IMG/VR virus record: IMGVR_UViG_3300030101_001745
Span: 1-64,000 of that record
Source of the DNA: a virus
Length of the DNA stretch: 64,000 bases
Direction: 5' to 3' (one strand)
Part shown: in pieces, positions 4,440-57,543 of the stretch
Numbering within the stretch: the stretch's first letter is position 1
Layout: the number at the start of each line of letters is the position of its first letter
Translations under genes and position numbers: made by a program
The notes under the pieces: generated by a model
What the model was told of the DNA's origin: nothing
Databases searched by the model: none
The model's input: only the letters and a program-made list of their open reading frames with translations

Positions 4440-7034
4440 GTGGTTGAAACAGGATTGATGTTTGAGAAAGAAACTGAGGATTTGACTAGAGCAATTCTTG
4501 ATTTCTTTGAGAAGACACGATACGCCTATCTTTCAGCCAGAGAAGACAAAGCAGAGTATGAGAAGGAATGGCACGAAGTCATAGATAAAATCAGAGATGA
4601 CTACGACTCGCTAAACAAACTGTCTGAGGAATTGAAGAAGTATCTAGAAGAGAAGGTTCTATTCGATAAGTCTGCTAAAGACCCAACCACTCTAGAAGCC
4701 AAGAAGGTATATGAAGCCGTAAAGGACATGAGGTTTCAGTCCAAGAAGGTTAGCGACCCGTTCTCTAAGAAGTTTGAAGGGGATGTAATAAACACCCTAT
4801 TGGAAAGTGACAGACTCTTCATCGCATTTATCCACTACGCACTACGTTCCCATTCCAATGCCCTTCCCGATAAAATATGGGAAGAACACGACATGGAGGG
4901 AGATGATATCACTCAAGGTGTAATGGGATTGGATTTAGAGATGGATGACATACCTCTCTACATCATAGAACACTATGGGGCAGAAGATGAAGACCAAAGC
5001 AGAATCAAGTCAAAGTTCAAGGGGGCGTTGAAGCAACTTGACAAGATGTTCAATGGTGTATACGAAGATGAACAATGGGATAATCTAGTTGAGTTAGACC
5101 TAGAGAAGAGCGAAGATGAGAAGAGCGAAGATGAGAAATCGGAGATAGATTTCATCATACCAAACAAGCCAATGTACAGGATATTTGAGTTGGATGACTT
5201 GAAGGAGTTGAAAGGATTTACTGGAGAGTGGTTAGTTCAAGAGAAGTATGATGGCATGAGAATACAACTTCACAAGAAGAAGGATAACATCAAGATATAC
5301 TCATACAATAAGAAGGATATTACTGACAAATGTGAGAAGCAAGTCGAGCAACTAAAGAAGAAGCAGTTCGGGGATTGCATACTAGATGGAGAGTTGGTTC
5401 TGTTTGAGGATGATGAACCACTACATCGGGCTTCTACCATTGCTCATGTTTTCAAGAACAAGAAAGGTGGAGAACTAAGAGCGCATGTGTTTGACATAAT
5501 GCAACATGAGGGCAAGGACATTCATGATGAACCATTGAGGGAGAGACATAACGTCCTTCTATACCAATTCAGCCAACACTCATCTGATGCTCTCGCTTTC
5601 CCATCGAAGAAAGATACCAGAGTTGCAGACTCAGTCAAGGAAGTAGGAGAGTATGCGAAAGACATCATGCAACTACCTGCATCGGAAGGAGTGGTAATCA
5701 AGGATATGGAGTCAACATATCCAATTACAAAGAAGAAGAATCCGAAGTGGATTAAGTGGAAAAAGTTCGTTGACTTGGATGTTATTGTACTAGATAAGAA
5801 ATCCACTAACAACGGAATGCATACTTACACTATGGGAGTAGGCCCGATTACTGCGGAAGAGGCTAGGACTTACACTACTACAGACATGGATGATAAGGCA
5901 TATGTTCCAGTTGGTAAGGCACTCAACACCAAGGTAAAGGTAAGTGTCGGAGACATAGTTAGAGTAAAAGTTGATGAAGTTAAGAAGAATAAGAAGGGAT
6001 TCAATCTCTACTCCGCTAAGGTAATAGAGATACCAGAGGTAACTCAATCTGACAAACTATCCACGTTGGAGAGGTTATCTACAAAGACAAAGAAATCCTT
6101 GACTTCAGACGCTATCATTGGAGTTCAACAACTCAGCCCATTCAAAATTACAACCGGATTAAGGGATAAGGACAATGAGAAGAAATCGTACATGATAACG
6201 GATAACGTACATGGTACTGCTGAGATAATTATGAAGAGTGATTTTGATGGTTTTACCATATATGGATTTGAAGGTGATTCACTCATGCAGAAGAACGCAT
6301 TGTACAATCTAGATATGTGGAAGTCTGAACTAGAGAGGATGTTGAAAACCAGAAGGTCAGAATTGAGAATCGCAATCAAGAATGAAATAATAGACATATA
6401 CAAGAACAAACCAACTGCCTTTCCTAAGATAGTTGATTTCGTAAAGAAGGAGTTCCCAGAGACATACGAAGAGGTTTTCCAGAGTAGCGATGAGAATCTG
6501 ATGAGTTGGATGAAGAAACAAGATAGTCTGAGATATCATCATCCCAACAAGTTTACTGCTATACCAGATGTTCTAGAGAAGGATGTCGAGGAATTAAAAA
6601 AAAGAGAAACAGGTTCGTTTAGCATCGTCTTAAGAGAAGATGGTAACTTGGATTTTATCATGAATGTTAATGACAAGAGAAACTTCTGGGAGATTGATAT
6701 AGAAGACACCGAGGACATATACGATTTGTTTGGTAAGTCTGGGAAGTTCCCTGCTATTGTAGGAAAGAAGTTAGGTCAACATAAGAAGGAGATAGACTCT
6801 GGTAAGTTAATACTAGGCGTACAGAAAGAAGGATACCATGAATACAAACTAGAAGGTGATAAGTTTGATACTAGATTCCACGTTAGAGTTGTACCTCTAG
6901 ATGAAAAGCAGACTTGGGTTGTTTGGACAGGTAAAAAACAAGAGATGTTGGATATGAAAGACGATACAAAACTCTGGGATATTACAGAAGATAAATATGC
7001 AGATTTGTCATTTCCAACTAAAAAATCAGATTAA
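4440..7034 (+). CDS. lig: ATP-dependent DNA ligase with N- and C-terminal extensions
   Basis: Motif I QEKYDGMR, III ILDGELV, IIIa HVFDIM, IV SEGVVIKD, V WIKWKK, followed by an OB-fold-like region. Confidence 0.92.
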   Translation: MVETGLMFEKETEDLTRAILDFFEKTRYAYLSAREDKAEYEKEWHEVIDKIRDDYDSLNKLSEELKKYLEEKVLFDKSAKDPTTLEAKKVYEAVKDMRFQSKKVSDPFSKKFEGDVINTLLESDRLFIAFIHYALRSHSNALPDKIWEEHDMEGDDITQGVMGLDLEMDDIPLYIIEHYGAEDEDQSRIKSKFKGALKQLDKMFNGVYEDEQWDNLVELDLEKSEDEKSEDEKSEIDFIIPNKPMYRIFELDDLKELKGFTGEWLVQEKYDGMRIQLHKKKDNIKIYSYNKKDITDKCEKQVEQLKKKQFGDCILDGELVLFEDDEPLHRASTIAHVFKNKKGGELRAHVFDIMQHEGKDIHDEPLRERHNVLLYQFSQHSSDALAFPSKKDTRVADSVKEVGEYAKDIMQLPASEGVVIKDMESTYPITKKKNPKWIKWKKFVDLDVIVLDKKSTNNGMHTYTMGVGPITAEEARTYTTTDMDDKAYVPVGKALNTKVKVSVGDIVRVKVDEVKKNKKGFNLYSAKVIEIPEVTQSDKLSTLERLSTKTKKSLTSDAIIGVQQLSPFKITTGLRDKDNEKKSYMITDNVHGTAEIIMKSDFDGFTIYGFEGDSLMQKNALYNLDMWKSELERMLKTRRSELRIAIKNEIIDIYKNKPTAFPKIVDFVKKEFPETYEEVFQSSDENLMSWMKKQDSLRYHHPNKFTAIPDVLEKDVEELKKRETGSFSIVLREDGNLDFIMNVNDKRNFWEIDIEDTEDIYDLFGKSGKFPAIVGKKLGQHKKEIDSGKLILGVQKEGYHEYKLEGDKFDTRFHVRVVPLDEKQTWVVWTGKKQEMLDMKDDTKLWDITEDKYADLSFPTKKSD
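5103..5144 (+). repeat. In-frame 15-bp tandem repeat (EKSED x2 plus a partial copy) in the ligase linker
   Basis: gagaagagcgaagat twice, then gagaaatcggag. Confidence 0.85.
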
Positions 7035-7055: not shown

Positions 7056-8297
7056 GTGTCGAAAGTGTTAGCATCAGGAGAACTGCTACTAAAAGCAAAT
7101 GAGGAAAGAGAATTTAGTATACTGAAGTCTGACGGATTAGTAATAGGAGGATATGCATCAATAGAAATCGTTGACAAGCAAAACGACCTTATCACACTAG
7201 ATGCATTGGATGAAGCAGTCAAGAAATACATGGGAGAGAAGAAGTACAGAAATGTAATGTCAAACCATTCAAATGTTCAAGTCGGGGAGGTAGTAGAGAA
7301 ATATCGTGATAAAAACGGAGTCTTACACAAAACCAGTGTGGATGACGTTGGATTCTATGTTGTTATCAAAATGAGAGATGACATAGAAAAAGCGAAGGAA
7401 ATTTCTAGAAACATCCGAAAAGGAACACTTAGGTCATTTAGTATAGGAGGGCAAGCGATTTCTAAGAAGCAGAGAACATCTGACGAGTATGGAGAATACA
7501 ACGAAATAGATAAGTTGGAATTACATGAAGTCACAATCTGCGAGAAAGGAATCAACCCAGAAGCGAAATTCGACATCTTGAAACAAGAGTCGGAGGTGAA
7601 AAACAATATGAGTGAAAAACTGGAAAAAGCACTTGAAGAGTTGAACGGCCTAATGAAGCAGGTTGAGCAACTTAACAAGGAAGAAGAAGATGAAAAAATG
7701 GCAAATTCATCGTACGAGAAGGAAATGATGGACGAGAAGAAAGCCGATGAAGGTGATGACATGGAAGAAGAGGATATGGATTCTATGGCATACGCGGATG
7801 ATGATGAGGACAAGGAAGAGAAAGCACTTGACCAAGACACCACAAGAGATTATGAGGCGGGAGAGGAAGTTGTTAGCGGTGGTTCACCGAAAGCAACACC
7901 TGCACCACTCTCAGTCTCTAAGGGTCTAGAGTCGGCTGATTTCTCTACTCTTGACCTTAGTGCCGAGAACGTAGAGAAGGCTTACGAGGCTTTCAAAGCA
8001 GAGCAGTTGGAGAAACTTGCTTACGACAACCTAAGCAAGACCTTCGGTGCTAGGTTCCAAGAGGAACTTGCTTTGAAGAAATCCGAGGCAGAGAGAAGCG
8101 AGTACGATGCTCGCGCAGACGTTGCTGGACTAAAGCAAGAGTTTGCTGAGTTGAGGAAGTCTCTCACTGAGAAGGATGAAGAAATTCGCAAGGCACAGGA
8201 AGTCGCCTTTGACCTACCTGAAAACTTCCCAACGTCAGTTGAGGAAGCATCTGGTCTGTCATGGGGAGATATACACAACCTAGCGAGGGGTGATTAA
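7056..8297 (+). CDS. HK97-type prohead protease fused to an acidic coiled-coil scaffold
   Basis: GYAS..VDKQND, MSNH, LRSFSIGG, LHEVTICEKGINPEA; directly upstream of the MCP. Confidence 0.9.
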   Translation: MSKVLASGELLLKANEEREFSILKSDGLVIGGYASIEIVDKQNDLITLDALDEAVKKYMGEKKYRNVMSNHSNVQVGEVVEKYRDKNGVLHKTSVDDVGFYVVIKMRDDIEKAKEISRNIRKGTLRSFSIGGQAISKKQRTSDEYGEYNEIDKLELHEVTICEKGINPEAKFDILKQESEVKNNMSEKLEKALEELNGLMKQVEQLNKEEEDEKMANSSYEKEMMDEKKADEGDDMEEEDMDSMAYADDDEDKEEKALDQDTTRDYEAGEEVVSGGSPKATPAPLSVSKGLESADFSTLDLSAENVEKAYEAFKAEQLEKLAYDNLSKTFGARFQEELALKKSEAERSEYDARADVAGLKQEFAELRKSLTEKDEEIRKAQEVAFDLPENFPTSVEEASGLSWGDIHNLARGD

Positions 8298-8299
8298 AT

Positions 8300-9721
8300 A
8301 TGACTGGATATATTAAGACAATGAAAGACCTTGAAGCAGCAACCTATGGAATGAGGGGCGCACAGGGCAATGCACTACTAAAGAGCGCAGGTGTAGTCGG
8401 AGGATTTGGAACACCACACGATGCAAGTGGCAGAGACTTTACTGCCGCCACTGGATTGTCCGACCTATACGGAGTCCTATACGGGCAGAAGGTTTGGTCA
8501 ATGCTGAATCAGGAAGTTAACGCACTTTCGATGATGGCAAAGCGACCTTACACTTCCTCTGGTTGGAGGGTTCTAAGGAGCCGACCATCCGGTGGGGCTA
8601 GTGCCGCCTTCGGAGTAGGAAGCGGAGCCGCAGGTTCTGCAACCCCTAGAGCAGACAGACTAGGTGGAGTCACAGAGAACGAGGCTCTAGCAGACATCCC
8701 TGCTCTGTCTCCAGAGTACACCAAACTCTACATCAGCCCTAAGACGATTGCTCATAAGTTTGAGTTCTCAGAGGTTGGTATGGAGATGGCCGCTATTGAT
8801 GACGGTGTAGGTGACATTCGTGCTATCGTTAGAGAGGACATGGGTAAGCACCACGCAGAGGTTCAGAACGTTATGCTTCTGATGCCACTAGAGCGATACT
8901 CGGATGTCGATGGCGCAGTCAACGGAGATGACATTACAGACAGCAACAAGACTGGAGTTATGGAGAACTACACTTCGCTCCACAAGATTGTCTCATCTGC
9001 CGAGGAAATCGGACAGATGTACCTAGACAACATAACGGCTAGGAGCGAGAACGATGGCGGAGTAACGGCAATTTCCCTTGCAGTAAGGAAGATTTTCGGA
9101 ACAGACAGAGAAGTTACGTCTGCCGCCGATGGTGGTGACGCAGGAAGCGTTGACGATGTTGTGATAAACAACACTGGAGACAGGACTTACCTAGATGCAG
9201 AGGTTGACTTCGGTACATCATACGCATCTGCTAGGGTTCTAACTCTATCAATCCTTAACGACATGATTAGGAAGATAAGGCAGAACGGCGGAAACCCGAA
9301 GGTGATGATTACTGGATACGATACTATCCAGCACATCTCTGACCTACTACAGAGCCAAGAGAGATTCATGGACAGGAAGGAGATTGTACCTACCCACAAC
9401 GGAGTTCGCGGGCCTAAAGGTGCTGAAGTCGGTTTCCGTGTAGCAACCTACTACGACATACCCATCATCCCAGCAAAGGACATGCCATCCACAACTGCTT
9501 CGTCAGTTACCAACGGATTGAGCGACATCCTTCTTCTGGACACGGACCATCTGTGGATGAGTGTGATGAAGCCTACTCAATACTTTGAGGATGGTATCGC
9601 TAACGGCAACCCATTCGGTGTTGACAGGCTTGGTAACACAGGTCTGTACAGAACCATGGGCGAGACTGCTTGCTCGTTCTTCAAGGGACAAGGTAAGATA
9701 ACCAACCTAAAGTCTGCGTGA
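8300..9721 (+). CDS. Major capsid protein (HK97 fold)
   Basis: 473 aa, follows the protease; PKTIAHKFEFSE, long backbone helix, YYDIPIIP and LLLDTDHL P-domain-like strands. Confidence 0.88.
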   Translation: MTGYIKTMKDLEAATYGMRGAQGNALLKSAGVVGGFGTPHDASGRDFTAATGLSDLYGVLYGQKVWSMLNQEVNALSMMAKRPYTSSGWRVLRSRPSGGASAAFGVGSGAAGSATPRADRLGGVTENEALADIPALSPEYTKLYISPKTIAHKFEFSEVGMEMAAIDDGVGDIRAIVREDMGKHHAEVQNVMLLMPLERYSDVDGAVNGDDITDSNKTGVMENYTSLHKIVSSAEEIGQMYLDNITARSENDGGVTAISLAVRKIFGTDREVTSAADGGDAGSVDDVVINNTGDRTYLDAEVDFGTSYASARVLTLSILNDMIRKIRQNGGNPKVMITGYDTIQHISDLLQSQERFMDRKEIVPTHNGVRGPKGAEVGFRVATYYDIPIIPAKDMPSTTASSVTNGLSDILLLDTDHLWMSVMKPTQYFEDGIANGNPFGVDRLGNTGLYRTMGETACSFFKGQGKITNLKSA

Positions 9722-9733
9722 GGTGGTTGTTGA

Positions 9734-10117
9734 ATGGCAACCGTAGTAACGATACTTGAGGACCACAAGGGTATGACCACGCCTAGAGTATCTGGTGATG
9801 AGTATTTCGTAGATGTCTTAGTTGACATGGACGCATATCCCGGAACCGATGATGTAGGTATCCTAGTGAATGCCGCAGATTGTGGACTCAGCACCATTCA
9901 CCAAGTGATGGTGACTGGTCAGGACACCTTTACGGGACTAGTTGTCCCAGAGGTGTTGTCCACAGGTTCATACACAACGAACACAGGAAGCGGAGCAACT
10001 GCTTCTACGACTTCGTTCTGTCTGAACGTGCTACACGAAGTAAGTAACCAGATAGCAGAGCATACCGGAACCACAGATTACGGTTCTGTGCGCTGTCGAG
10101 TTTACGGCCTTCTCTGA
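9734..10117 (+). CDS. Putative capsid decoration / minor head protein
   Basis: Beta-rich 127-aa ORF immediately after the MCP, with GAGGTGG RBS. Confidence 0.55.
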   Translation: MATVVTILEDHKGMTTPRVSGDEYFVDVLVDMDAYPGTDDVGILVNAADCGLSTIHQVMVTGQDTFTGLVVPEVLSTGSYTTNTGSGATASTTSFCLNVLHEVSNQIAEHTGTTDYGSVRCRVYGLL

Positions 10118-10129
10118 GTAAAACATAAA

Positions 10130-10171
10130 GTAGTGGCCCTCTTCCTAGAGCATCAGGAAGGGGGTCGCTAC
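10130..10171 (+). promoter_or_regulatory. 17-bp RNA stem-loop after the capsid genes (stabiliser, attenuator or processing site)
   Basis: gtagtggccctcttcct / agagcatc / aggaagggggtcgctac; 14 Watson-Crick pairs plus 3 G.U pairs, no mismatches. Confidence 0.7.
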
Positions 10172-10192
10172 CCTCTATTACTAGGTGAGAAT

Positions 10193-10714
10193 ATGGCTAA
10201 GGTTAGACTAACTAACAGACCATTGAATGGTCGGGCAATGAGAATAAATTTTGGAACAGATAGGTACGTTGTAGGATACAAACAAGACGTAGACATACCT
10301 CTGAGATATGCTAGTTCGCTTCTTAGAGATGACAACTACACAGTAGTATTAGATTCAAGTGATGAGAAGGACTTGGCTACTATGTCAAAGTACAAGAGAA
10401 GCCATCTAATTGGACACTATGATGGATTGTCCGAGGATGATGATGGCCCGACCATGGTTAAGAAACTGTTCGGGAAGAGCAAGTCCTTCTTTGGTAGTAA
10501 GGCCAAGCCGGAGAAACTACCAGAGGCTAAGGAAGAGATTCATCCTCAAATGGAGAAGCCAGTCAAGGAAGAAAAGGAAGTCCTTGCCCCTTTGCCACCA
10601 AATCTAGAGAAACTCACCAACAAGCAACTCAAGGCTCTACTCGATGAGAGAGGAATCAAGGCAGACGGTAAGAAGTCGATTCTAATTGATGCGCTATTGG
10701 AGGCAGAAGGATGA
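10193..10714 (+). CDS. Protein with C-terminal SAP/HeH-like nucleic-acid-binding motif
   Basis: LEKLTNKQLKALLDERGIKADGKKSILIDALLE; ATG at 10193 after GGTGAG. Confidence 0.7.
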   Translation: MAKVRLTNRPLNGRAMRINFGTDRYVVGYKQDVDIPLRYASSLLRDDNYTVVLDSSDEKDLATMSKYKRSHLIGHYDGLSEDDDGPTMVKKLFGKSKSFFGSKAKPEKLPEAKEEIHPQMEKPVKEEKEVLAPLPPNLEKLTNKQLKALLDERGIKADGKKSILIDALLEAEG

Positions 10715-11034: not shown

Positions 11035-11442
11035 ATGCCAAGCCTAGAAACAGACACCCGCATGATTATGGCGATACTGTTCGTAGGTTCGATGTGTGGT
11101 GTGAATGTATTCGCATACTCACAGTACGGAATATCCTTCCCATATGGCCCGGAGGCACATGCCATCTTATTTGGCATTAGTACGGTAGGTGGGATACTTG
11201 TTGTCAAAGTGGCATTCGATGTGTTCCTTAGCGATATGATTGAGGAAACCCTACTTAGGAGAGCCATTGATGGCTATTGGGGTAGAAAGGAAAGAGAAGA
11301 GCAGAACAAGAGAAGAGTACGAGAGTCGATGGCTCGCTTCCAACAGAACTACACTCCTTACGGAGATTCTACTCTTCCAACGGTGAAGGCCGAAGAACCA
11401 GAGACAATGACTCCTGCGTTCTTAACACTTGAAAACCAGTAG
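11035..11442 (+). CDS. Two-TM membrane protein with charged helical C-tail (holin-like topology)
   Basis: Hydrophobic segments MIMAILFVGSMCGVNVFAY and AILFGISTVGGILVVKVAFDVFL. Confidence 0.75.
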   Translation: MPSLETDTRMIMAILFVGSMCGVNVFAYSQYGISFPYGPEAHAILFGISTVGGILVVKVAFDVFLSDMIEETLLRRAIDGYWGRKEREEQNKRRVRESMARFQQNYTPYGDSTLPTVKAEEPETMTPAFLTLENQ

Positions 11443-11457
11443 ATGTGAGGAATATGT

Positions 11458-11682
11458 ATGGTCAGCGAAATCCTATTTGGAATGGATGAGTCTACCCTCG
11501 CATATGACTTACAAAGAGCGCACTCTGCTGATATCTGGTTTCTAAGGGCTAGGTTCTACCTATGGGGTGGAATCTTCTGTCTGGGTAGTTTTGCACTTGG
11601 ACAACTCCTAGCGGTTTATGGAATCAATACGCTATCAATGACATGGAATGGTCTAGTAGACTTCTGGAATCATCTGTGGTGA
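11458..11682 (+). CDS. Small membrane protein (1 TM plus Trp-rich amphipathic C-terminal helix)
   Basis: FYLWGGIFCLGSFALGQLLAVYGI; TWNGLVDFWNHLW. Confidence 0.7.
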   Translation: MVSEILFGMDESTLAYDLQRAHSADIWFLRARFYLWGGIFCLGSFALGQLLAVYGINTLSMTWNGLVDFWNHLW

Positions 11683-11686
11683 TATA

Positions 11687-12358
11687 TTGTCAGTAATGGC
11701 AGGTTTTGCCATATTGATAGTCGAGGGACTCAACAAACTATACCAACGTGTACATGCAATCAATTTCGGTATATATGGGGCTACCAGAGCAGGTAAGACC
11801 ACTATGAATCACCAGTTGAGAACGAGAGGTGATGTTCCAGATATTCGACATAGGACAGAAGGATTGCAACGTGCAAGCAGGAAGTACGTCAAACTAGACG
11901 GTGATGCACATACTGTGAAAACGGCTGATGTAGGTGGACAAACGGTATACTGGAATGACTGGTTGAACGATATGAGGAATCGAAGAGTCAAGTACATCAT
12001 CTTCATGATGGATGATAGACACATGGACAAGCATTATGATATCGAACAACAACTGTGTTGGACTTTCCTAGTGGATACAATTTGCAGTACAGAATGGAAC
12101 ATCAATGGTAAGAGAAAGAAGAAAAGAGAATCAGACTATCCAGTAGCAGTAGGAATATGGGCTAACAAGTATGACTTGTGGAAAGACAAGTATGAACATG
12201 ATGGGCCAATAGAACAGCATCCTATTTTCTCTGCATTCAGAGATGGCATTCAAAGATTGAACGACAAAGGAATACCTTGCTACAAATACATAGTAAGTGC
12301 CAAGACAGACTCTGAGATGGTCTACAGAGGTGTCCTAACCATGATAAAGGACTACTAG
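11687..12358 (+). CDS. Arf-like small GTPase (Ras superfamily)
   Basis: G1 GATRAGKT, G2 RTEG, G3 DVGGQ, IIFMMD, G4 ANKYD, G5 SAK; hydrophobic/amphipathic N-terminus; TTG start after GGTGA. Confidence 0.9.
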   Translation: MSVMAGFAILIVEGLNKLYQRVHAINFGIYGATRAGKTTMNHQLRTRGDVPDIRHRTEGLQRASRKYVKLDGDAHTVKTADVGGQTVYWNDWLNDMRNRRVKYIIFMMDDRHMDKHYDIEQQLCWTFLVDTICSTEWNINGKRKKKRESDYPVAVGIWANKYDLWKDKYEHDGPIEQHPIFSAFRDGIQRLNDKGIPCYKYIVSAKTDSEMVYRGVLTMIKDY

Positions 12359-12370
12359 TTCGGTGAACAT

Positions 12371-13045
12371 ATGTCAATGTCATTCCAACCACCAAGTTTG
12401 ATAGGTTCTTCGACAACGAATGTAACCAATACGGCATTCATGGATAGAATGGAACATGCTAGAAGCGCGGGTTCCATAATGCAATATGAATACAAGAGCG
12501 TCAAGCCAAAGAAACAATTGAAAGAGATAATCAAGGTACTAACACCTGAGAAGAAAACATTCCTGAAAATACCATACAGATTCAAGTACAACATCAAAGA
12601 TAGATGTGTAGTGTGCGGTACACACAAAGTATGGGATGCAAGTGATAATCTTCGACCACCTCTACCATTACACAAGGTTCGCAAGGGATACCCAATGCGA
12701 GGAACCTACTGTGAGAAACATGCAGGTATACACAGGCAATACGAGATGCTAGAGCAACAGGTACTAGCAGAGGAACATGGATTGTCATTCAGCGCATACA
12801 TACCTAAGACCCCATCTATGCAGACTCTGAATCCATTGTCCTCTGGCCCTTTGACTACCTTGAAAGAAACTGATATCATGTCACTTTCTTCTGTCGGTTG
12901 GACAATTAAACCACCTACGGCAGAACAAGAAAACATCGAAGAAGAATTGTTTCGGTTGCTAATAGAGCAAAATACAATTAACCAACGAGTGAAAACGTTA
13001 TTGACCGAGGGTGCGAAGGTCACCATTAAGGAGAGTGATGCGTGA
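12371..13045 (+). CDS. Putative Zn-binding protein with C-terminal coiled coil
   Basis: CVVCG ... YCEKH; C-terminal heptad-like helix. Confidence 0.7.
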   Translation: MSMSFQPPSLIGSSTTNVTNTAFMDRMEHARSAGSIMQYEYKSVKPKKQLKEIIKVLTPEKKTFLKIPYRFKYNIKDRCVVCGTHKVWDASDNLRPPLPLHKVRKGYPMRGTYCEKHAGIHRQYEMLEQQVLAEEHGLSFSAYIPKTPSMQTLNPLSSGPLTTLKETDIMSLSSVGWTIKPPTAEQENIEEELFRLLIEQNTINQRVKTLLTEGAKVTIKESDA

Positions 13046-13764
13046 TGGGGCTTTTTGGAACTAGTAACACATCTCTGTATAATCAAATGCAGAATAATCA
13101 ACAGGCACAGTTCAAGACAATGAACAATCTGTTGACTCTACAGGAGAATCACGTAGAGGATTTCTTTCAGTATCATGGTGAGGCATTTCTATCTGCATTG
13201 GCACAACTAGTGGGTGATGTGGTTAACAAGACTGTTAGTGAGATATTGACAAATCTCGCTTTCGTCACTTCCAACAATGGTAATCTTTCTCTATCTGTAG
13301 ATTCTACCAATGCTCTCAATGCTATCACACAGGCAAACATTGAGTTGGACATACAGACTCTTCTTGCTTCTGCGATAAACTCCGAAGTCATCATGCAGAG
13401 AAGAATGGCTAAGACGCAATACCTTGAGGCTCAAGGATTTGCTATGCCACAAGAACAGCAGGTCACACAACAGCAAGCAACGGTGGGTGGTATGCCCGGT
13501 CAGCCCAATACTAATGGTATAGACCCATCAATGATACAAGGTGGTAACGCCTCTGTCCAGATGAACAACGCGATGATGCAACAGCAAATGGCATTCAACA
13601 ACCAATCTGGATATCCCGTACCTCCTTCTGGATATGACAATATGAACAATCCATATTGGATAGACCCTGTATCCGGTCAGATGACATACACCCCGCCCGC
13701 AAGCGGGCTTGGTCTTGCTAATGCCGTCAGTAAGGGCATTGCTTGGGCCAAGTGGCTTGCATAG
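13042..13764 (+). CDS. Q/N/M-rich helical protein with low-complexity tail and amphipathic C-terminus
   Basis: Q/M/P-rich second half; ends GLANAVSKGIAWAKWLA. Confidence 0.75.
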   Translation: MMGLFGTSNTSLYNQMQNNQQAQFKTMNNLLTLQENHVEDFFQYHGEAFLSALAQLVGDVVNKTVSEILTNLAFVTSNNGNLSLSVDSTNALNAITQANIELDIQTLLASAINSEVIMQRRMAKTQYLEAQGFAMPQEQQVTQQQATVGGMPGQPNTNGIDPSMIQGGNASVQMNNAMMQQQMAFNNQSGYPVPPSGYDNMNNPYWIDPVSGQMTYTPPASGLGLANAVSKGIAWAKWLA

Positions 13765-13773
13765 GTGAGGTAG

Positions 13774-16662
13774 ATGGTTCTGATTAAACAAGATAGATAC
13801 AAAGAAAAAATGATTATTCCGGGCGAGTTAATACGCCTAGAAAATCAGAATGTCGTTTTTGATAATCTTCCCGCATCAGCAGACTTTGAAGAATTCTTGA
13901 GAAACATAGCATTCCAGTATCTAACCGCTTATCCTTTCAAGAATCTAGGTAAGAATCAAAGTGCGAAGATGAACAAAGCAAGGAAAGTGATGCCACTACT
14001 TGCTGATGTAGATGAAAGTGATTTCGCAGATGCAAACATATCCACTAGGAAAAACAAGCCCGGTAGTTTTACAGATACTAAGAAAAAAAGATACTTCGAT
14101 ACATTCATGAAAAAACTAGGAAAGGAGAATCTTTCGCTATTGATAAAGATACTTCAAAAGGAAGATTTTCTAGCAAAGGAGTTGAATCTCTCCGAAGCCA
14201 CGATAAAACGTCTAGGTGGTAAGGAAGGAGAGAATCTAACTCTAGAGAGATTGGATAGCGAATCTACCATTCAGAAGGTAGTAGGCTATGAAGCAGGTAC
14301 AGGGCTTTCTCCTAGTGGTAAGATAACTGCGGTGACACCAGAGCAACAGAAAAAATATGAAGATGATATGAAGCAGTATGAAGCAGGTGAAATCAAAGAA
14401 AAACCCGAAGCACCCAAACCAGATTTCCAAGAAGCAGACAAGCCAAACAGAACCATATCCCTACTATCCAAGTTTGACAAGGGAGAACCAATAGTGGACA
14501 TAGGTAGAAACAGCGATACCTTTCAGATGTTTTTGGATAACATATCAATAGAAGGAGATACGATTAAAATTCAAACTGAGGATTACATCAAGGCTATCAT
14601 GGCTATTCATGGGTACTATGACCCAGCGAAGGATGAATGGCAATTTGAGATGAAGGATGCTCCAGAAGGAGCAGACACAGAAGAAATGCAGAACATGCTT
14701 GATAAAATCTTAACGGGAATGGATAAGTTTGAGGATGAACCTGTAGAAAGTTCTTCGGGCTTGAGACAATATATGAAGGAATATAAAAAATTCAAGAGAC
14801 AACTCAAGAGAATGGAGAAAGAGAACTTTCTCACACCAGAGGAAGTCGATACCTATTTACAGAACCTAGAAGATAAGATTGCAGATACTAAGCAAGCCAT
14901 AAAGGATATGCGAGGTGCTGAGACTGGTGCTGATGCTGAAACTGGCGAAGGTGACATCGAAGAAGAACCTCAAGAAGAGATTGAAGTGTTAGAAGCAGGA
15001 AGTCCAGATGAGGATGATGTTGCTGAAAAGATGATGAAGGCGATGGATATCATCAAATCAAGTGTAGGTCAAAGAAGAGAATTGAAGAAAGTAGATAACT
15101 ACAGTATAGAATATATTACTCCGAAAGATAATGGCAAATATACGTTGAAGAAATTCGATGGTACTGAATTAGATAACCTGTCACCTAGAGAGGCATACAA
15201 TGCAAGATTGACAGAGTTGACAGAAACCGACATTAAGAACGCCCTATTATCAAAGCCACCTAAAAGCGGTAGAGATGTACATGGGTTAAGGAGAATGATT
15301 CTATCAACCATAACACCTTCTAATGGCTCTATATCAATTGGGACTACTGAATTCAAAATCAACTATGCTCCGTTCCAAGGAGATGCGGGATATGATAAAT
15401 TCCTAATGTCACTACAGAGAAAGGACACAAAGGAAGATTCGCAGTTTATGGCATATGTACCAGAGTTGCTGAAAGCGACATTCATTCTTTTCAAATACAA
15501 TCAGTTGATTCAAAGTATGCCTAAGTTTGAACTTGCAAAGATGCTTGACAGATATACAGATGAAGACGAACTAGTGCAAGATTTGGTATCGTATGCGGCT
15601 TTGATTACTAACGATGCATACGCATTGAAGAATCCAGAAGGTGGAACTAGACTAGCAAGTAGATACAATCCAGATACCAAAGCATATGAGGAAATAGAAG
15701 AGGAAATACCTGCAATAAAAGACCACCCAGATTGGAAGAAAGCAGTAGAGAACCCACAATACACAGAGTTGTTCAATGCTTGGAAAAAGAAAATTGCAGA
15801 TGCACCTGATGAGATAGACATGGAGACAGGTAAGGTCAAGGAAAAACCGACAGAACCGGGTAAATTCTACGAAGCAGATACCATTGATGAAAAAGGCCGT
15901 CTTGTTGAAGGTAAAGATAGAGAAGACACTCCAATGGTTGAAAGTCAGATAATGGAAGTAGACGACAAGACTCCACCATTTAGAAAGTTCAGATTTGCTA
16001 AAGTTGACTTAAATGATTTTACACAGGGATATACAACTAAAACAGTAGCAGACCTAACTAAATTGGTTGAAGATATCAATAAAATTATCATGTACATAGA
16101 TAACATCGAACTAGCAAAACCAGATGTAGATAAAGCAGAGATGGAGCCACAAGACAAGGCTATCATAGATGGTTTGGGAACTGGAAAGACAAGTCTCTTT
16201 TACAGGCCAAAGGGAGATGTCGGTCTTAGTTACAGTCTATCGGAGTTGTTTACCACGATGTCGGGTGACTCAGCACATGAGGAAATTATGGCAAGTATAG
16301 GAAATAAGGGCCAAGGTCTTATAGAAATTTATTATGACCATAAGGACTACCTCAAGAAACTTCTAGAGAATGCAGGGGGAGTTCAGATAGATGATGATGA
16401 AGACCCATTCATACAACCCCAGATGAATCTAATGTGGCTAGGTAAACCCGTTGACAAGAACAAGGATAGCATACACCAAAGGCAACTTATCCGCACCAAG
16501 CCAGAAGTAAAGGCCGGGAGAAAACAATGGAGAGAGACATATGACTCTCGTAAAGGTGAGAAGAACATATTCGATAAAGAGAAAGCACAGGATGTGAATG
16601 CGCTCATGAAGATAAAGAACAATTATCAAGACTTAAGAAGAGTAATCAATAGCGGTGGTTAA
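13774..16662 (+). CDS. Large (962 aa) acidic hypothetical protein
   Basis: Long ORF with GGTGAGG RBS; no recognisable motifs. Confidence 0.8.
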   Translation: MVLIKQDRYKEKMIIPGELIRLENQNVVFDNLPASADFEEFLRNIAFQYLTAYPFKNLGKNQSAKMNKARKVMPLLADVDESDFADANISTRKNKPGSFTDTKKKRYFDTFMKKLGKENLSLLIKILQKEDFLAKELNLSEATIKRLGGKEGENLTLERLDSESTIQKVVGYEAGTGLSPSGKITAVTPEQQKKYEDDMKQYEAGEIKEKPEAPKPDFQEADKPNRTISLLSKFDKGEPIVDIGRNSDTFQMFLDNISIEGDTIKIQTEDYIKAIMAIHGYYDPAKDEWQFEMKDAPEGADTEEMQNMLDKILTGMDKFEDEPVESSSGLRQYMKEYKKFKRQLKRMEKENFLTPEEVDTYLQNLEDKIADTKQAIKDMRGAETGADAETGEGDIEEEPQEEIEVLEAGSPDEDDVAEKMMKAMDIIKSSVGQRRELKKVDNYSIEYITPKDNGKYTLKKFDGTELDNLSPREAYNARLTELTETDIKNALLSKPPKSGRDVHGLRRMILSTITPSNGSISIGTTEFKINYAPFQGDAGYDKFLMSLQRKDTKEDSQFMAYVPELLKATFILFKYNQLIQSMPKFELAKMLDRYTDEDELVQDLVSYAALITNDAYALKNPEGGTRLASRYNPDTKAYEEIEEEIPAIKDHPDWKKAVENPQYTELFNAWKKKIADAPDEIDMETGKVKEKPTEPGKFYEADTIDEKGRLVEGKDREDTPMVESQIMEVDDKTPPFRKFRFAKVDLNDFTQGYTTKTVADLTKLVEDINKIIMYIDNIELAKPDVDKAEMEPQDKAIIDGLGTGKTSLFYRPKGDVGLSYSLSELFTTMSGDSAHEEIMASIGNKGQGLIEIYYDHKDYLKKLLENAGGVQIDDDEDPFIQPQMNLMWLGKPVDKNKDSIHQRQLIRTKPEVKAGRKQWRETYDSRKGEKNIFDKEKAQDVNALMKIKNNYQDLRRVINSGG

Positions 16663-54381: not shown

Positions 54382-54489
54382 TCATTCTTCCTCTCTTATT
54401 TGTTCCTCTATGCATTTTCTACACCATCTATTTCCCATCATTATGAAATCATTACATGTCTCACATTTTACGGTGACTATGCCATTCAA
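54382..54489 (-). CDS. 35-aa Zn-finger microprotein (CETC...CRKC)
   Basis: Hand-translated; TTGA overlap with the PolB C-part stop. Confidence 0.5.
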   Translation of the reverse strand: MNGIVTVKCETCNDFIMMGNRWCRKCIEEQIREEE

Positions 54490-55400
54490 ACTAACCATTC
54501 CCCCAAGGCACTTTGATTTCTATCTTTCTTAATTGCCTGTAAGTCCCATTCCATTGCATGATAGATTGGTGTGGCTTTCTTTAGAACCGACTCTGCATAA
54601 TGTCTCCAATCTGGTTCATGCCATGACTCCGATAGTTCCTTCTCCGTTATGAAGGAGAAGTAGGATGGTCTTGTTGACCTACCAGAGAACGGATGTGTGT
54701 ATGTGGCGGGAGAGTGTGGGTCAATCCTAAAGTACAGATATGAATCTGTAATAGGTGTATCCGATATAGTATCGTGATACAATACACCCTCTATCCCAGA
54801 ACCGATGGTAGGTCGCTTTCCTTCTGATGTGACATAATCTGGTTTATCACAACACTCTCTTCCCATCTGCTTTCTCTCCATCAACTCATGAAGGGTAAAG
54901 TTACTCTTCCAACCGTTCTTCCTACAGTTGTTACAGATTACCTTGAACCTAGATTCTTTGTATCTCGTTCTTGTTAGAACATCGCTAACAGGAATCTTAC
55001 CTTTTAATACTGCATTGTAAAGACCATGTAGGTAATCAGTTACCTCTTCTTCACTACATGCATTGACCCACATGTTCAAGACTTGTGTTTGTGTCTCCTT
55101 ACCTAGTTTAGTGATAGACTGTCTCTTGGCAGTAAAACCAGTCATTGAGAACTCGTCTTCTTCAAGGAACTCCCCATCTTTCCAAGTAATCAACCCTGCG
55201 TTCCTGTTCTTTGTCACACCTACACCTAGAGTTTTGAAATACTTCTCAAACTCTAACTGTACAGGATGCTCATCCAAACCTAGAATGTTTGGAAACAACT
55301 TCTGTACTTCCTTGTTTATATGCTCTACTGCTTCCTTACCTTTCTCAACAGATTCACAATCTACATAGATGGAATCCGTGTGTCCATAAACTACCTTCAT
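54486..55400 (-). CDS. polB: Family B DNA polymerase, C-terminal subunit (motif C plus thumb)
   Basis: VVYGHTDSIYV, LEFEKYF, KNRNAG, GFTAKR. Confidence 0.88.
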   Translation of the reverse strand: MKVVYGHTDSIYVDCESVEKGKEAVEHINKEVQKLFPNILGLDEHPVQLEFEKYFKTLGVGVTKNRNAGLITWKDGEFLEEDEFSMTGFTAKRQSITKLGKETQTQVLNMWVNACSEEEVTDYLHGLYNAVLKGKIPVSDVLTRTRYKESRFKVICNNCRKNGWKSNFTLHELMERKQMGRECCDKPDYVTSEGKRPTIGSGIEGVLYHDTISDTPITDSYLYFRIDPHSPATYTHPFSGRSTRPSYFSFITEKELSESWHEPDWRHYAESVLKKATPIYHAMEWDLQAIKKDRNQSALGEWLV

Positions 55401-55633
55401 TATTCTCTCTCCTTGTAATTATCATGGTCTTTAGGTAACTTGTGTTGCCTTCTTTCCATCATGTTTCTAAGATAACCGCTAATGTTAGTGGCTCCTGTTC
55501 GGAAACGCTTCTCAGCAATCTTGTCTCCTTTCGGAACCATTTCGGCCATTAGGCCATCTAACCATGCTCTTCTTCCTACCCAATCTAATATTTCATATTC
55601 TACGTGTGCTACGCTTCTCGCTCTTCTTTCCAT
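55400..55633 (-). CDS. Hypothetical protein between the PolB halves
   Basis: 77 aa; TAATG-coupled to the PolB C-part. Confidence 0.6.
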   Translation of the reverse strand: MERRARSVAHVEYEILDWVGRRAWLDGLMAEMVPKGDKIAEKRFRTGATNISGYLRNMMERRQHKLPKDHDNYKERE

Positions 55634-55812
55634 TTTATCAATTCCTTTTTTATTTTCATAATCATTTTTTCATCTAAATGTGGGAATGGATTCACCATTC
55701 TCAGATAGTCGTGTAGCCAATGTCCGATACATACTTTGCACACGAAACCATGTTCCGTCATACAACCCTCGGACTCTACATGACATACCGTACATCTAGC
55801 CACCTCTCCCAT
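55609..55812 (-). CDS. Zn-finger microprotein between the PolB halves
   Basis: CTVC...CKVC. Confidence 0.6.
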   Translation of the reverse strand: MGEVARCTVCHVESEGCMTEHGFVCKVCIGHWLHDYLRMVNPFPHLDEKMIMKIKKELIKWKEEREA

Positions 55813-55863
55813 GTCGCTTCCTCCATGCTTTCCTCGCTTTGAAGTAAGACTCCCAAGTTTGGC

Positions 55864-57543
55864 TCATTCGTATCGCCTCGCTTGGTAGGCCGCTTCTCTA
55901 ATTGCTTCTCTAGCACTAGCAGTAATTGCCTCTGCTAATTCGATATCACACCAACCGTATCCTTGGAATCCAACAATCCCATAGAACGAAGCCATTAATC
56001 TCTTGACCGCTAGTTGGTTGTTGTTCCACATAACGTACTCGGATTTGTCAGATGCATTTTTCATATTCACCTTGTACTCATTCCTCAACTTCTTCAATCC
56101 CAAAAGAGAACGTGGCAGAAGTCCTAAGTCATCCGTCTTGAAGTATCTCATATTCGTGTGAGTTGATTCACTGAAATCCTTGGGAGTGCTGATATTTACT
56201 GCAAACTCAGTTGGTACTCTCGATTTTGTCTCCCACGAAATGTTTCTTGCAATCATCATGCTCGGATACAGACCCGCGAAGTCAAATGCGGCTACACCGA
56301 AATGTAGCCCATTTGTGCCTTCACTAAGCGGGTCATATACCATCGCCCCATCATATGACCTAGACTCTCCTTTCTTGCCTGTAGGAGCCTTCCAAGAAGC
56401 ATTACGCATGAAGTAAATTCCTGCCATCTTAGTCGCATGATGACATGCATCATACGGTGCTTTCAGAAGTCTCTGTAGAGATAGTATTGCTTCCGTGATG
56501 TGATTGGTAGTATCTAGTTCAACTAGCAATTCTACGTCTATCCTAGCATACTCCAGATAGACATCTGAATCCTCCAACCAAGCCCTAGCAAAGAATTCGT
56601 TCTTGTCTGGAAACCTATTACTCACTAGTTTCTTCTTTCCAAGAACGGTTTCACCTATGTAGTCAAGTGCCATTGAAGGCAATGTTCCTCTCTGAGAATC
56701 CAACCATTGTCTTTCAAACGCCGCATCTAGAGCAACACATATCCTACCCTTGATTGGTTGGTATGTAGGTGAGTAACTGTTCACCTTTCTCTTATCCATA
56801 GCGACTTGCTTTGTCTTCTTATCCCAATACACTCCACTAACTTCATCACAAGGAGAAAGCAGTTGAGCATCTAACTTGTTATGGATGAGCCTCTCAATCA
56901 ACTTAGGCAGGTCGAACTTCCAACCGAACCAAGAGATAAGCATGTCTGGGTCATGGAAGATGATATCGCTAAGGAAAGCCTGTAGCATCTTCTTCTCAGA
57001 AGAATAAAACTTCGCACCTTGTCCTAGCCCATCTGTGTCTCTACCATCTGGATACCAAACATATGTCTTGTACCAATTGTCATAACTGTCGTATGTAGCA
57101 ATACAAGTAATCGCGCCGTCATGTTCTCCACCTTGCATCCATTCCATATCCCAATACAACTTTCTCATTTCATACTCTGGAAAGAAATCCGGGTTCTCTA
57201 TAGCATACCTGTGATGATGTGCAACATCTCCTTCGTATGTGTCAATATTGTTTCTGTCAAACCAGTTTCTCATCAACTTAGCATAGTGTGGTTTTGGTGG
57301 TGACCAAGAAACTTGCTTTAGTCTATCACCGTCAAGATTGACGAAATCAGTCTTCTCGTATGATGGCTTCAATGTGAAACTACCATAGGCATCTCTACCC
57401 TTGCACTCATTCATCTCAACCTCACTATCCTTGATGTAGAACCTAGGCTTGAATTCATCGAAGGATACTTCCTTCGTCTGAACCTTCTTGTATTCATCTC
57501 TCCATCTAAGCAGTATTCCCTTTGTCGTAGTATCAATAATCAT
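55864..57543 (-). CDS. polB: Family B DNA polymerase, N-terminal subunit (exonuclease plus motifs A and B)
   Basis: ExoI WDME, ExoII FDLPKL, ExoIII YARID, motif A FDFAGLYPSMM, motif B KRLMASFYG. Confidence 0.92.
   Translation of the reverse strand: MIIDTTTKGILLRWRDEYKKVQTKEVSFDEFKPRFYIKDSEVEMNECKGRDAYGSFTLKPSYEKTDFVNLDGDRLKQVSWSPPKPHYAKLMRNWFDRNNIDTYEGDVAHHHRYAIENPDFFPEYEMRKLYWDMEWMQGGEHDGAITCIATYDSYDNWYKTYVWYPDGRDTDGLGQGAKFYSSEKKMLQAFLSDIIFHDPDMLISWFGWKFDLPKLIERLIHNKLDAQLLSPCDEVSGVYWDKKTKQVAMDKRKVNSYSPTYQPIKGRICVALDAAFERQWLDSQRGTLPSMALDYIGETVLGKKKLVSNRFPDKNEFFARAWLEDSDVYLEYARIDVELLVELDTTNHITEAILSLQRLLKAPYDACHHATKMAGIYFMRNASWKAPTGKKGESRSYDGAMVYDPLSEGTNGLHFGVAAFDFAGLYPSMMIARNISWETKSRVPTEFAVNISTPKDFSESTHTNMRYFKTDDLGLLPRSLLGLKKLRNEYKVNMKNASDKSEYVMWNNNQLAVKRLMASFYGIVGFQGYGWCDIELAEAITASAREAIREAAYQARRYE

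Follow-up and report, generated by a model that had tools for sequence, protein, structure and literature searches.

Positions 11,035 to 13,764 of the virus record IMGVR_UViG_3300030101_001745 hold five adjoining genes, here named A to E, one of which encodes a small GTPase. The record is 101,546 bp long and is rated complete by CheckV; the window analysed here is its first 64 kb (64,000 nucleotides). A ligase gene located inside the structural module and a split family-B DNA polymerase match the description of magrovirus group B/B1 (PMC5434244). Both traits have been reported for magrovirus groups A/B and B1 (PMC5434244). Magroviruses are predicted to be tailed viruses of Marine Group II (Poseidoniales) archaea. 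They are among the most abundant archaeal viruses of the surface ocean, and most of their genes have no annotation (PMC5434244).

All five genes lie on the plus strand and are tightly packed, as stated in a preliminary description that was made from the letters of the window. The spacers measure 15 nt between A and B, 4 nt between B and C and 12 nt between C and D, and the start of E overlaps the end of D by 4 nt. Gene A (11035..11442) encodes a protein of 135 residues with two transmembrane (TM) segments and a charged, Arg/Glu-rich C-terminal tail, a holin-like architecture. Gene B (11458..11682) encodes a single-pass membrane protein of 74 residues. Gene C (11687..12358) encodes the small GTPase, with 223 residues counted from a TTG start; an alternative ATG start at 11696 is used in many database copies. 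Gene D (12371..13045) encodes a soluble Cys/His protein of 224 residues with a probable zinc site, and gene E (13042..13764) a Q/N/M-rich protein of 240 residues.

Conservation of the cassette

A scan of IMG/VR with C returned 211 contigs, from which 80 loci were retrieved for analysis of synteny using tblastn. In all 80 of these GTPase-anchored loci, the order A-B-C-D-E is the same, as far as each contig reaches. To avoid circularity, a second test was anchored on the major capsid protein (MCP). All five genes were found in each of the 45 MCP-anchored loci having at least 4.3 kb of sequence downstream of the MCP gene, and shorter contigs hold exactly those cassette genes that fit the remaining length. 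Co-conservation, on which the preliminary description had made its reading depend beforehand, therefore holds in both sets.

Identity to C ranges from 72 to 100% across the 80 loci, versus 52-99% for MCP, and MCP is below C in nearly every locus. A is kept in all 80 loci with 44-99% identity, and B shows 60-99%. Pairwise ratios of nonsynonymous to synonymous substitution rates (dN/dS) lie at about 0.02-0.28 across the five genes, dS being saturated; the values are 0.08 for A, 0.02-0.28 for B and 0.04 for C. This purifying selection indicates that the small open reading frames (ORFs) are genuine genes. Thus, these are five real genes that are under strong constraint and invariably occur together.

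It could be argued that the five genes are unrelated neighbours, or that some of the small ORFs are not genes, since adjoining genes in dense viral operons need not cooperate and since, outside these viruses, the databases contain no relatives of A and B. We regard this as highly improbable. Order and content are kept in four lineages with differing flanks (see below), selection acts on all five genes, and D and E overlap.

In the metatranscriptome assemblies of two samples from one study, there are contigs identical to parts of A, of the A/B junction, of C and of E. These RNA-library contigs indicate presence only, without strand, level or timing, and their depths cannot rank genes. They leave uncovered most of C and D and the genes past 13.7 kb, which is not evidence of silence.

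A profile built from the alignment of this group of viruses, hereafter lineage 1, was also used to scan 185,579 species genomes. A single contig was retrieved, L162 (NZMJ01000101.1, 28.9 kb), assigned to a metagenome-assembled genome named ‘Maricaulis sp.’. Because it carries the protease, the MCP and the full cassette, with about 68% identity, it almost certainly derives from a magrovirus and was binned by mistake with a bacterial genome. In the GenBank phage collection, tblastn gave no match to C.

Gene C encodes an Arf-like GTPase

C contains all the motifs of a small GTPase with a Ras-like G domain: G1 (GATRAGKT, 11777-11800), the switch-I threonine Thr57 (11855-11857), G3 (DVGGQ, 11927-11941), G4 (NKYD, 12164-12175) and G5 (SAK, 12296-12304). 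Alignment of 27 diverse members of the family shows that the P-loop residues G31, G36 and K37, the G3 residues D81 and G84, D109, and the G4 residues N160 and K161 are invariant and that T57, W92 and D163 are nearly so. Trp92, in switch II, is located seven residues after the glutamine of DVGGQ, as in Arf1.

Taken singly, C matches databases weakly (TIGR00231, E 0.0014; Pfam Arf PF00025, E 0.0055 and 16.6 bits, below the 22.3-bit cut-off). When the 27 members are compared with Pfam, Arf is the strongest family, with 10 members at E ≤ 0.1 and a best value of 4e-9; weaker matches are to MMR_HSR1 (11 members), Roc (10) and SRPRB (9). The best genuine match of the family profile in the PDB is an Asgard Arf (8OUN, E 1.1e-9), followed by Arl3. 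The AlphaFold2 (AF2) model of C is mediocre, with a predicted local distance difference test (pLDDT) value of 62. A fold search with this model gave Arf6 (Z 9.9/9.8), SRbeta (9.7), an Asgard Rag-like protein (9.6), G-alpha (9.0), Arf1 (8.8) and Sar1 (8.5), all of which tie within about one Z unit. Foldseek, run on the same poor model, retrieved G-alpha chains with TM-scores of 0.32-0.41 and an rmsd of 8-10 Å, which is a hint at the clade only. The language-model neighbours of C in the Atlas, outside viral clusters, are prokaryotic and Asgard Arf-like clusters, and one IMG copy of the gene had been automatically named ‘GTPase SAR1 family protein’. The Pfam matches of the family, the Atlas neighbours, the PDB profile match and the fold search together place C in the Arf clade. 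The preliminary description, which had recognised an intact Arf-like GTPase, is therefore borne out at the level of the family.

The N-terminal part of C, residues 3-22, is predicted by AF2 to form a hydrophobic helix. Its hydrophobic moment is 0.39 and its mean hydrophobicity 0.27, which we take to be comparable to the N-termini of Sar1 and Arf1. A polybasic loop (residues ~140-147) precedes G4. The helix and the loop are both kept in all four lineages. These sequence features identify C as a G domain that binds guanine nucleotides, belongs to the Arf/Sar/SRbeta/G-alpha clade and carries both a hydrophobic helix at its N-terminus and a polybasic loop.

The residue following DxGG (codon 85, 11939-11941) can be Q, E, H, D or A across the family. 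It alternates between Q and E in lineage-1 viruses with 75-90% identity to one another, and is H, D or A in the other lineages. No change in D was seen that matches the Q/E flips. Hydrolysis of GTP by C may accordingly be slow or require a partner.

The proteins encoded by A, B, D and E

Hydropathy analysis places the two TM segments of A at residues ~10-28 and 43-61 (nt ~11062-11118 and 11161-11217) and the single segment of B at residues 38-56 (nt 11569-11625), in agreement with the 2-TM and 1-TM proteins announced beforehand. A and B are the only TM proteins of the late operon; C, D and E have no TM segment. Hydropathy thus clearly predicts that A and B are integral membrane proteins. A has no match in Pfam, PHROG, NCBIfam or PADLOC. 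In B, the N-terminal ~35 residues, with the motif DESTLAYDLQRAHSAD, are nearly invariant and the C-terminus is Trp-rich. The proposal that four of the five proteins have membrane-interacting segments is convincing for three only, A, B and C; the C-terminus of E is a weak case (moment 0.26).

D contains a putative zinc site formed by C79, C82, C114 and H117 (nt 12605-12721). C79, C114 and H117 are invariant across lineages, and the second cysteine is at position 82, or 84 in lineage 2. The motif MRGTYC-x2-H is nearly invariant. D therefore probably binds a metal, zinc, through this C-C-C-H site. Where the preliminary description had a coiled coil, the AF2 model (pLDDT 63) shows just long helices, at residues 115-136 and 189-213. 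D has no match in the PDB, Pfam or PHROG, an Atlas search gave nothing above 0.75, and the best result of the fold search (Z 4.5) concerned helical hairpins only.

We considered whether D could be an ArfGAP, the GTPase-activating protein (GAP) of Arf, and rejected this candidate. The ArfGAP motif reads CxxCSGxHR, and the string C-E-K-H-A-G-I-H-R of D resembles it. The arrangement in D, CxxC, then 31 residues, then CxxH, is at variance with the CxxC-x16-CxxC spacing and catalytic arginine of ArfGAPs. The arginine of ‘GIHR’ is not conserved: lineage 2 has His at this position and some members of lineage 1 have Met. No ArfGAP was listed in the fold search, a negative that by itself decides nothing.

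E is composed of 29% Q+N+M. It starts with an N-terminal GLFG, followed by a conserved central helical region of ~90 residues, a Q-rich linker and a Pro/Tyr-rich stretch. Its C-terminus is conserved, hydrophobic and Gly/Ala/Trp-rich (WAKWLA). No relative was found in the PDB. Weak PADLOC matches of this low-complexity protein to LmuA (0.002) and TIR (0.006) were dismissed. None of the five proteins matches PHROG structural families or the defence models of PADLOC.

The cassette in other lineages

Comparison of the C profile with 1.84 billion representative proteins gave 69 clusters at E ≤ 0.001. These are mostly fragments or have the lengths of the viral family, and no large cellular GTPase family is among them. 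Several clusters are full-length (224-277 residues, ~20-33% identity). Starting from three distant relatives of C, further sets of marine contigs (27-118 kb) were obtained. Among the distant relatives, P0012 and P0040 gave no match in viral contigs, and P0012 was found in metagenome contigs.

The cassette is found in three further, very divergent magrovirus-like lineages. In lineage 2 (127 viral contigs), the order is a ~180-residue protein with one TM segment, a ~81-residue protein with one TM segment, the GTPase, and then counterparts of D (~295-345 residues, Q-rich Cys/His) and E (~190-225 residues, Q/N-rich) and a sixth protein, X (~80 residues, two TM segments). It is flanked by a ~2,300-residue ORF and by a helix-turn-helix (HTH)/Zn small-terminase-like gene. 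In lineage 3, the same five genes are located directly behind a thermosome-type chaperonin. In lineage 4, the order is A, B, an inserted acidic protein, C, D, E and X, behind glycosyltransferase-like genes. The insert is 256-260 residues long and has a very acidic C-terminus (L241, 6229-6999; L250, 6217-6999).

Alignment of lineage-1 and lineage-2 profiles using hhalign gave probabilities of 99.9% for C, 92.5% for D (E 5e-7) and 92.8% for E (E 4e-7). For A, B and X, the connection is made by hidden Markov models (HMMs) via lineages 3 and 4. Gene E also matches its lineage-3 counterpart (E 2e-10), and B has weak ties to 70-100-residue genes with one TM segment at the same position in lineages 2-4. 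The occurrence of the cassette in three further divergent lineages, linking its five-gene and six-gene forms by sequence comparison, is new.

The genes that flank the cassette in lineage 2 (L084) have no detectable similarity to the window. In the present genome, a homologue of the HTH/Zn small-terminase-like gene (E 1e-61) is located at 89719-90375, far from the cassette and near the other end of the genome, which shows that the cassette was relocated relative to the packaging genes. Since the same cassette stands beside different neighbours in each lineage, it moves as a unit. These comparisons identify the cassette itself as the conserved entity, moved as one block between unrelated neighbourhoods.

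The lineage-2 cassette (L084-L113) is preceded by an AT-rich intergenic region of 100-350 nt. A recurrent element, GGTGAAT[CG]AA...CTTATGTAGCG, is located there ~60-75 nt upstream of the first cassette gene and may be a promoter or a regulatory site. The motif GGTGAAT[CG]A is absent from the window studied here.

Position of the cassette in the genome

In the present genome, the plus strand of the window carries the late structural operon. An ATP-dependent DNA ligase (4440-7034) is embedded in the head genes and is followed by the prohead protease (7056) and the HK97-type MCP (8300), both upstream of the cassette. Downstream are the tail tube gene (18556) and a tape-measure-like gene (20739), then giant ORFs; the identities of the protease, MCP, tail tube and tape-measure-like genes were confirmed. 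The minus strand carries an archaeal-type replication block, with the split family-B polymerase in two ORFs (54486-57543), a PD-(D/E)XK nuclease and a replication factor C (RFC)-like clamp loader.

The cassette is flanked by three small post-MCP genes on one side and by a 962-residue gene on the other. This last, K/E-rich gene (13774-16662), directly downstream of the cassette, is hypervariable: it shows 20-33% identity or no match in tblastn among genomes whose flanking genes are 60-90% identical. Its product is maybe a fast-evolving host-interaction or internal protein.

Upstream of the cassette, a long RNA-library contig, found in two samples, covers positions 7610-10567. From the scaffold part, or C-terminus, of the protease, it runs through the MCP gene and the gene after it and ends inside a SAP-domain gene, at ~10238-10567, with one loose end at 10238. 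The contig end may be a transcript end or a processing site.

The placement between head and neck genes, noted in the preliminary description, is borne out here in so far as the cassette lies between MCP and tail genes, a downstream gene of 368 residues being the putative neck gene; it is incidental in view of the other neighbours found in the three further lineages. This bears on the idea that the cassette is a morphogenesis or virion module. In such a module, C would serve assembly as an NTPase or chaperone, with D and E acting in head completion, inside the particle or in ejection. The part of A and B would be either to hold assembly at the membrane or, after injection, to form an entry channel. 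The location of the cassette inside the structural operon, with tight spacers, is consistent with this idea, as is the lineage-2 cassette directly preceding a small-terminase-like gene. In addition, TM segments can occur in the ejection proteins and tape measures of phages. However, the position is not conserved, lineages 3 and 4 having the cassette behind a thermosome and behind glycosyltransferase-like genes, respectively, and no PHROG structural family is matched. Moreover, we know of no Arf-type small GTPase that is a virion or assembly component in Caudoviricetes, and we found no paper describing one. Finally, the thermosome gene belongs to the replicative cluster (Philosof et al., PMC5434244). 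Altogether, a virion module is unlikely.

Possible function of the cassette

The best explanation of the data is that the cassette is a conserved functional module of magroviruses, arranged around a membrane-targeted Arf/Sar-type GTP switch. Its conserved synteny, the selection acting on it, its recurrence across lineages, the Arf-clade affiliation of C, the fact that A and B are the sole TM proteins of the late operon and the RNA-library contigs all support this reading. The layout of A, with two TM segments and a charged tail as is typical of holins, also counts in its favour. A GTP-switched module of this kind probably acts at the host membrane. That its purpose there is egress or lysis is possible, and we propose it with some reserve.

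In the mechanism that we envisage, the cassette would be co-expressed with the late genes. A and B would reside in the host cytoplasmic membrane and would recruit or activate C. GTP-bound C would then insert its N-terminal helix into the membrane, like Sar1, Arf1 and the archaeal GTPase ArvA. D would act as a regulator or effector of the GTP switch, and E could multimerise on the membrane via its Q/N-rich region and its hydrophobic C-terminus. As the likeliest output, the host membrane would be disrupted or remodelled in a controlled way so that virions are released. The GTPase would time or trigger this step, and the holin-like part would fall to A, or to X in other lineages.

Several points weigh against this reading. 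Function is deduced from sequence only, and the hosts have not been cultured. For D and E, neither a fold nor a family could be recognised, so that the roles given to them are purely conjectural. In the model of C, pLDDT is 26-49 over residues 34-87, which include the switch and interswitch regions. Because the residue after DxGG is variable, GTP hydrolysis, and hence the ‘timing’, is uncertain. Transcription is not proven; the RNA-library contigs could include DNA carry-over. Lastly, holins and lysis genes are usually fast-evolving, whereas the cassette is among the most conserved parts of the genome. Such conservation suits a lysis device no better, and perhaps less well, than it would suit an enzyme or a machine that interacts with the host.

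In its fullest form, our proposal is that magroviruses, the predominant viruses predicted for Marine Group II archaea, possess a vesiculating GTPase system of their own. It would be of Arf/Sar-like type, with membrane receptors and effectors dedicated to it, would have evolved outside eukaryotes and Asgard archaea, and would deform or rupture the host membrane for release. We put this forward as a tentative idea, held still more loosely than a role in egress or lysis as such. The main players in the egress of archaeal tailed viruses have been described as ‘still completely uncharacterized’ (PMC10791045). If the proposal is true, the cassette would be the first egress machinery identified for these viruses. 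It would also be the first case, again if true, of a prokaryotic virus encoding a machine that remodels membranes by means of a small GTPase. With a conservation above that of the capsid protein, a presence in four divergent lineages and an Arf-type switch, it provides a concrete, cloneable candidate for how archaeal head-tailed viruses leave their hosts.

Comparison with known systems

The resemblance to phage holin cassettes, whose proteins are small, membrane-bound and expressed late, lies in A and X, which combine a charged C-terminus with two TM segments and are encoded in or beside the late operon. The two kinds of cassette differ in several respects. No endolysin or spanin accompanies the cassette, in agreement with the preliminary description, which recognised no endolysin; the window ORFs that were scanned gave no match to an endolysin or holin family, holins being too diverse for this negative to count. 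The hosts of magroviruses have no murein. The viral cassette is extremely conserved, whereas holins are diverse. To our knowledge, no described lysis cassette contains a GTPase.

SRbeta, the beta subunit of the SRP receptor, is also an Arf-clade GTPase held at the membrane by an N-terminal hydrophobic segment. The fold matches of C in this comparison have Z values of 8.8-9.7, and weak SRPRB matches in Pfam were obtained for 9 of the 27 members. In contrast with SRbeta, the cassette has no SRalpha/SRX-like partner and its context is unrelated to protein targeting. The N-terminal segment of C is also, from its hydropathy, too short for a TM span.

We compared C with Arf1/Arf6, Arl3 and Sar1 and with the Asgard Arf structures 8OUN, 8OUM and 8OUL (bioRxiv 10.1101/2024.02.28.582541, PMC11914678). 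C shares with Arf proteins the motifs G1-G5, the DVGGQ sequence, the ‘IIFxxD’ strand after switch II and an N-terminal helix before strand 1. However, the tryptophan that precedes DxGG is replaced by alanine, the glutamine of G3 is not conserved in the family, the switch-I/interswitch region is longer and a polybasic insert is located before G4. SRbeta, Rag-like and G-alpha structures tie with Arf as fold matches of C, within one Z unit. C also differs in being encoded by a prokaryotic virus and in having no known guanine nucleotide exchange factor, GAP or coat partners. No mention of a GTPase was found in the papers on magroviruses and archaeal viruses that were searched for the term.

The preliminary description knew of no equivalent of the cassette in Caudoviricetes. 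A cellular analogue does exist, the archaeal vesiculation operon ArvA-ArvB-ArvC, which had been overlooked there (PMC10927574). In Haloferax volcanii, the formation of extracellular vesicles requires ArvA, a small GTPase whose N-terminal helix is amphipathic. ArvA is encoded with a DUF2073 protein and with a Zn-ribbon protein proposed as its GAP (PMC10927574). As far as can be judged from gene content and protein features, ArvABC is the closest described functional analogue of the cassette, which is not itself a member of this system. Both are operons in which a helix-bearing small GTPase, C being likened to ArvA by its description, is followed by a Zn-binding protein, and the action of ArvABC on the archaeal cytoplasmic membrane is a further likeness. 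Membership fails because neither the model of ArvB (DUF2073, PF09846/OapB) nor that of the ArvC Zn-ribbon (DUF2072, PF09845/OapC) matches anything in the whole 101.5-kb genome at E ≤ 10; control genomes, including Haloferax, respond to the ArvB model. Moreover, D has a C-C-C-H site of another kind and no fold match, and ArvABC has nothing that corresponds to the two or three small TM proteins or to the Q/N-rich protein of the viral cassette.

This resemblance suggests that the cassette could be a viral counterpart of ArvABC, serving budding, vesicles or intracellular membrane structures rather than lysis. Possible uses would be non-lytic or en-bloc release, decoy vesicles, a membrane-bound site of assembly or replication, and superinfection exclusion. 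The layout common to C-D and ArvA-ArvC (PMC10927574) is in line with this view, as is the conservation of the polybasic loop and N-terminal helix in all four lineages. The high conservation of C would suit a machine engaging conserved host membranes or factors, and a review speculates on the viral use of such GTPases (PMC10791045). On the other hand, OapB and OapC counterparts are missing from the genome, the 69 clusters retrieved with the C profile contain no large cellular GTPase family, and tailed, non-enveloped virions are not known to bud. In addition, magrovirus reads are mostly found in the free-virus fraction, which fits lytic release (Philosof et al., PMC5434244). We therefore consider the counterpart view somewhat unlikely and favour a GTP-switched module that would disrupt or remodel the host membrane for virion release.

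Whatever its output, the cassette widens the known range of Arf/Sar-like membrane GTPases, past eukaryotes, Asgard archaea and the ArvA family, into viruses. A viral Arf-like GTPase bears on the evolution of GTPase-driven membrane remodelling.

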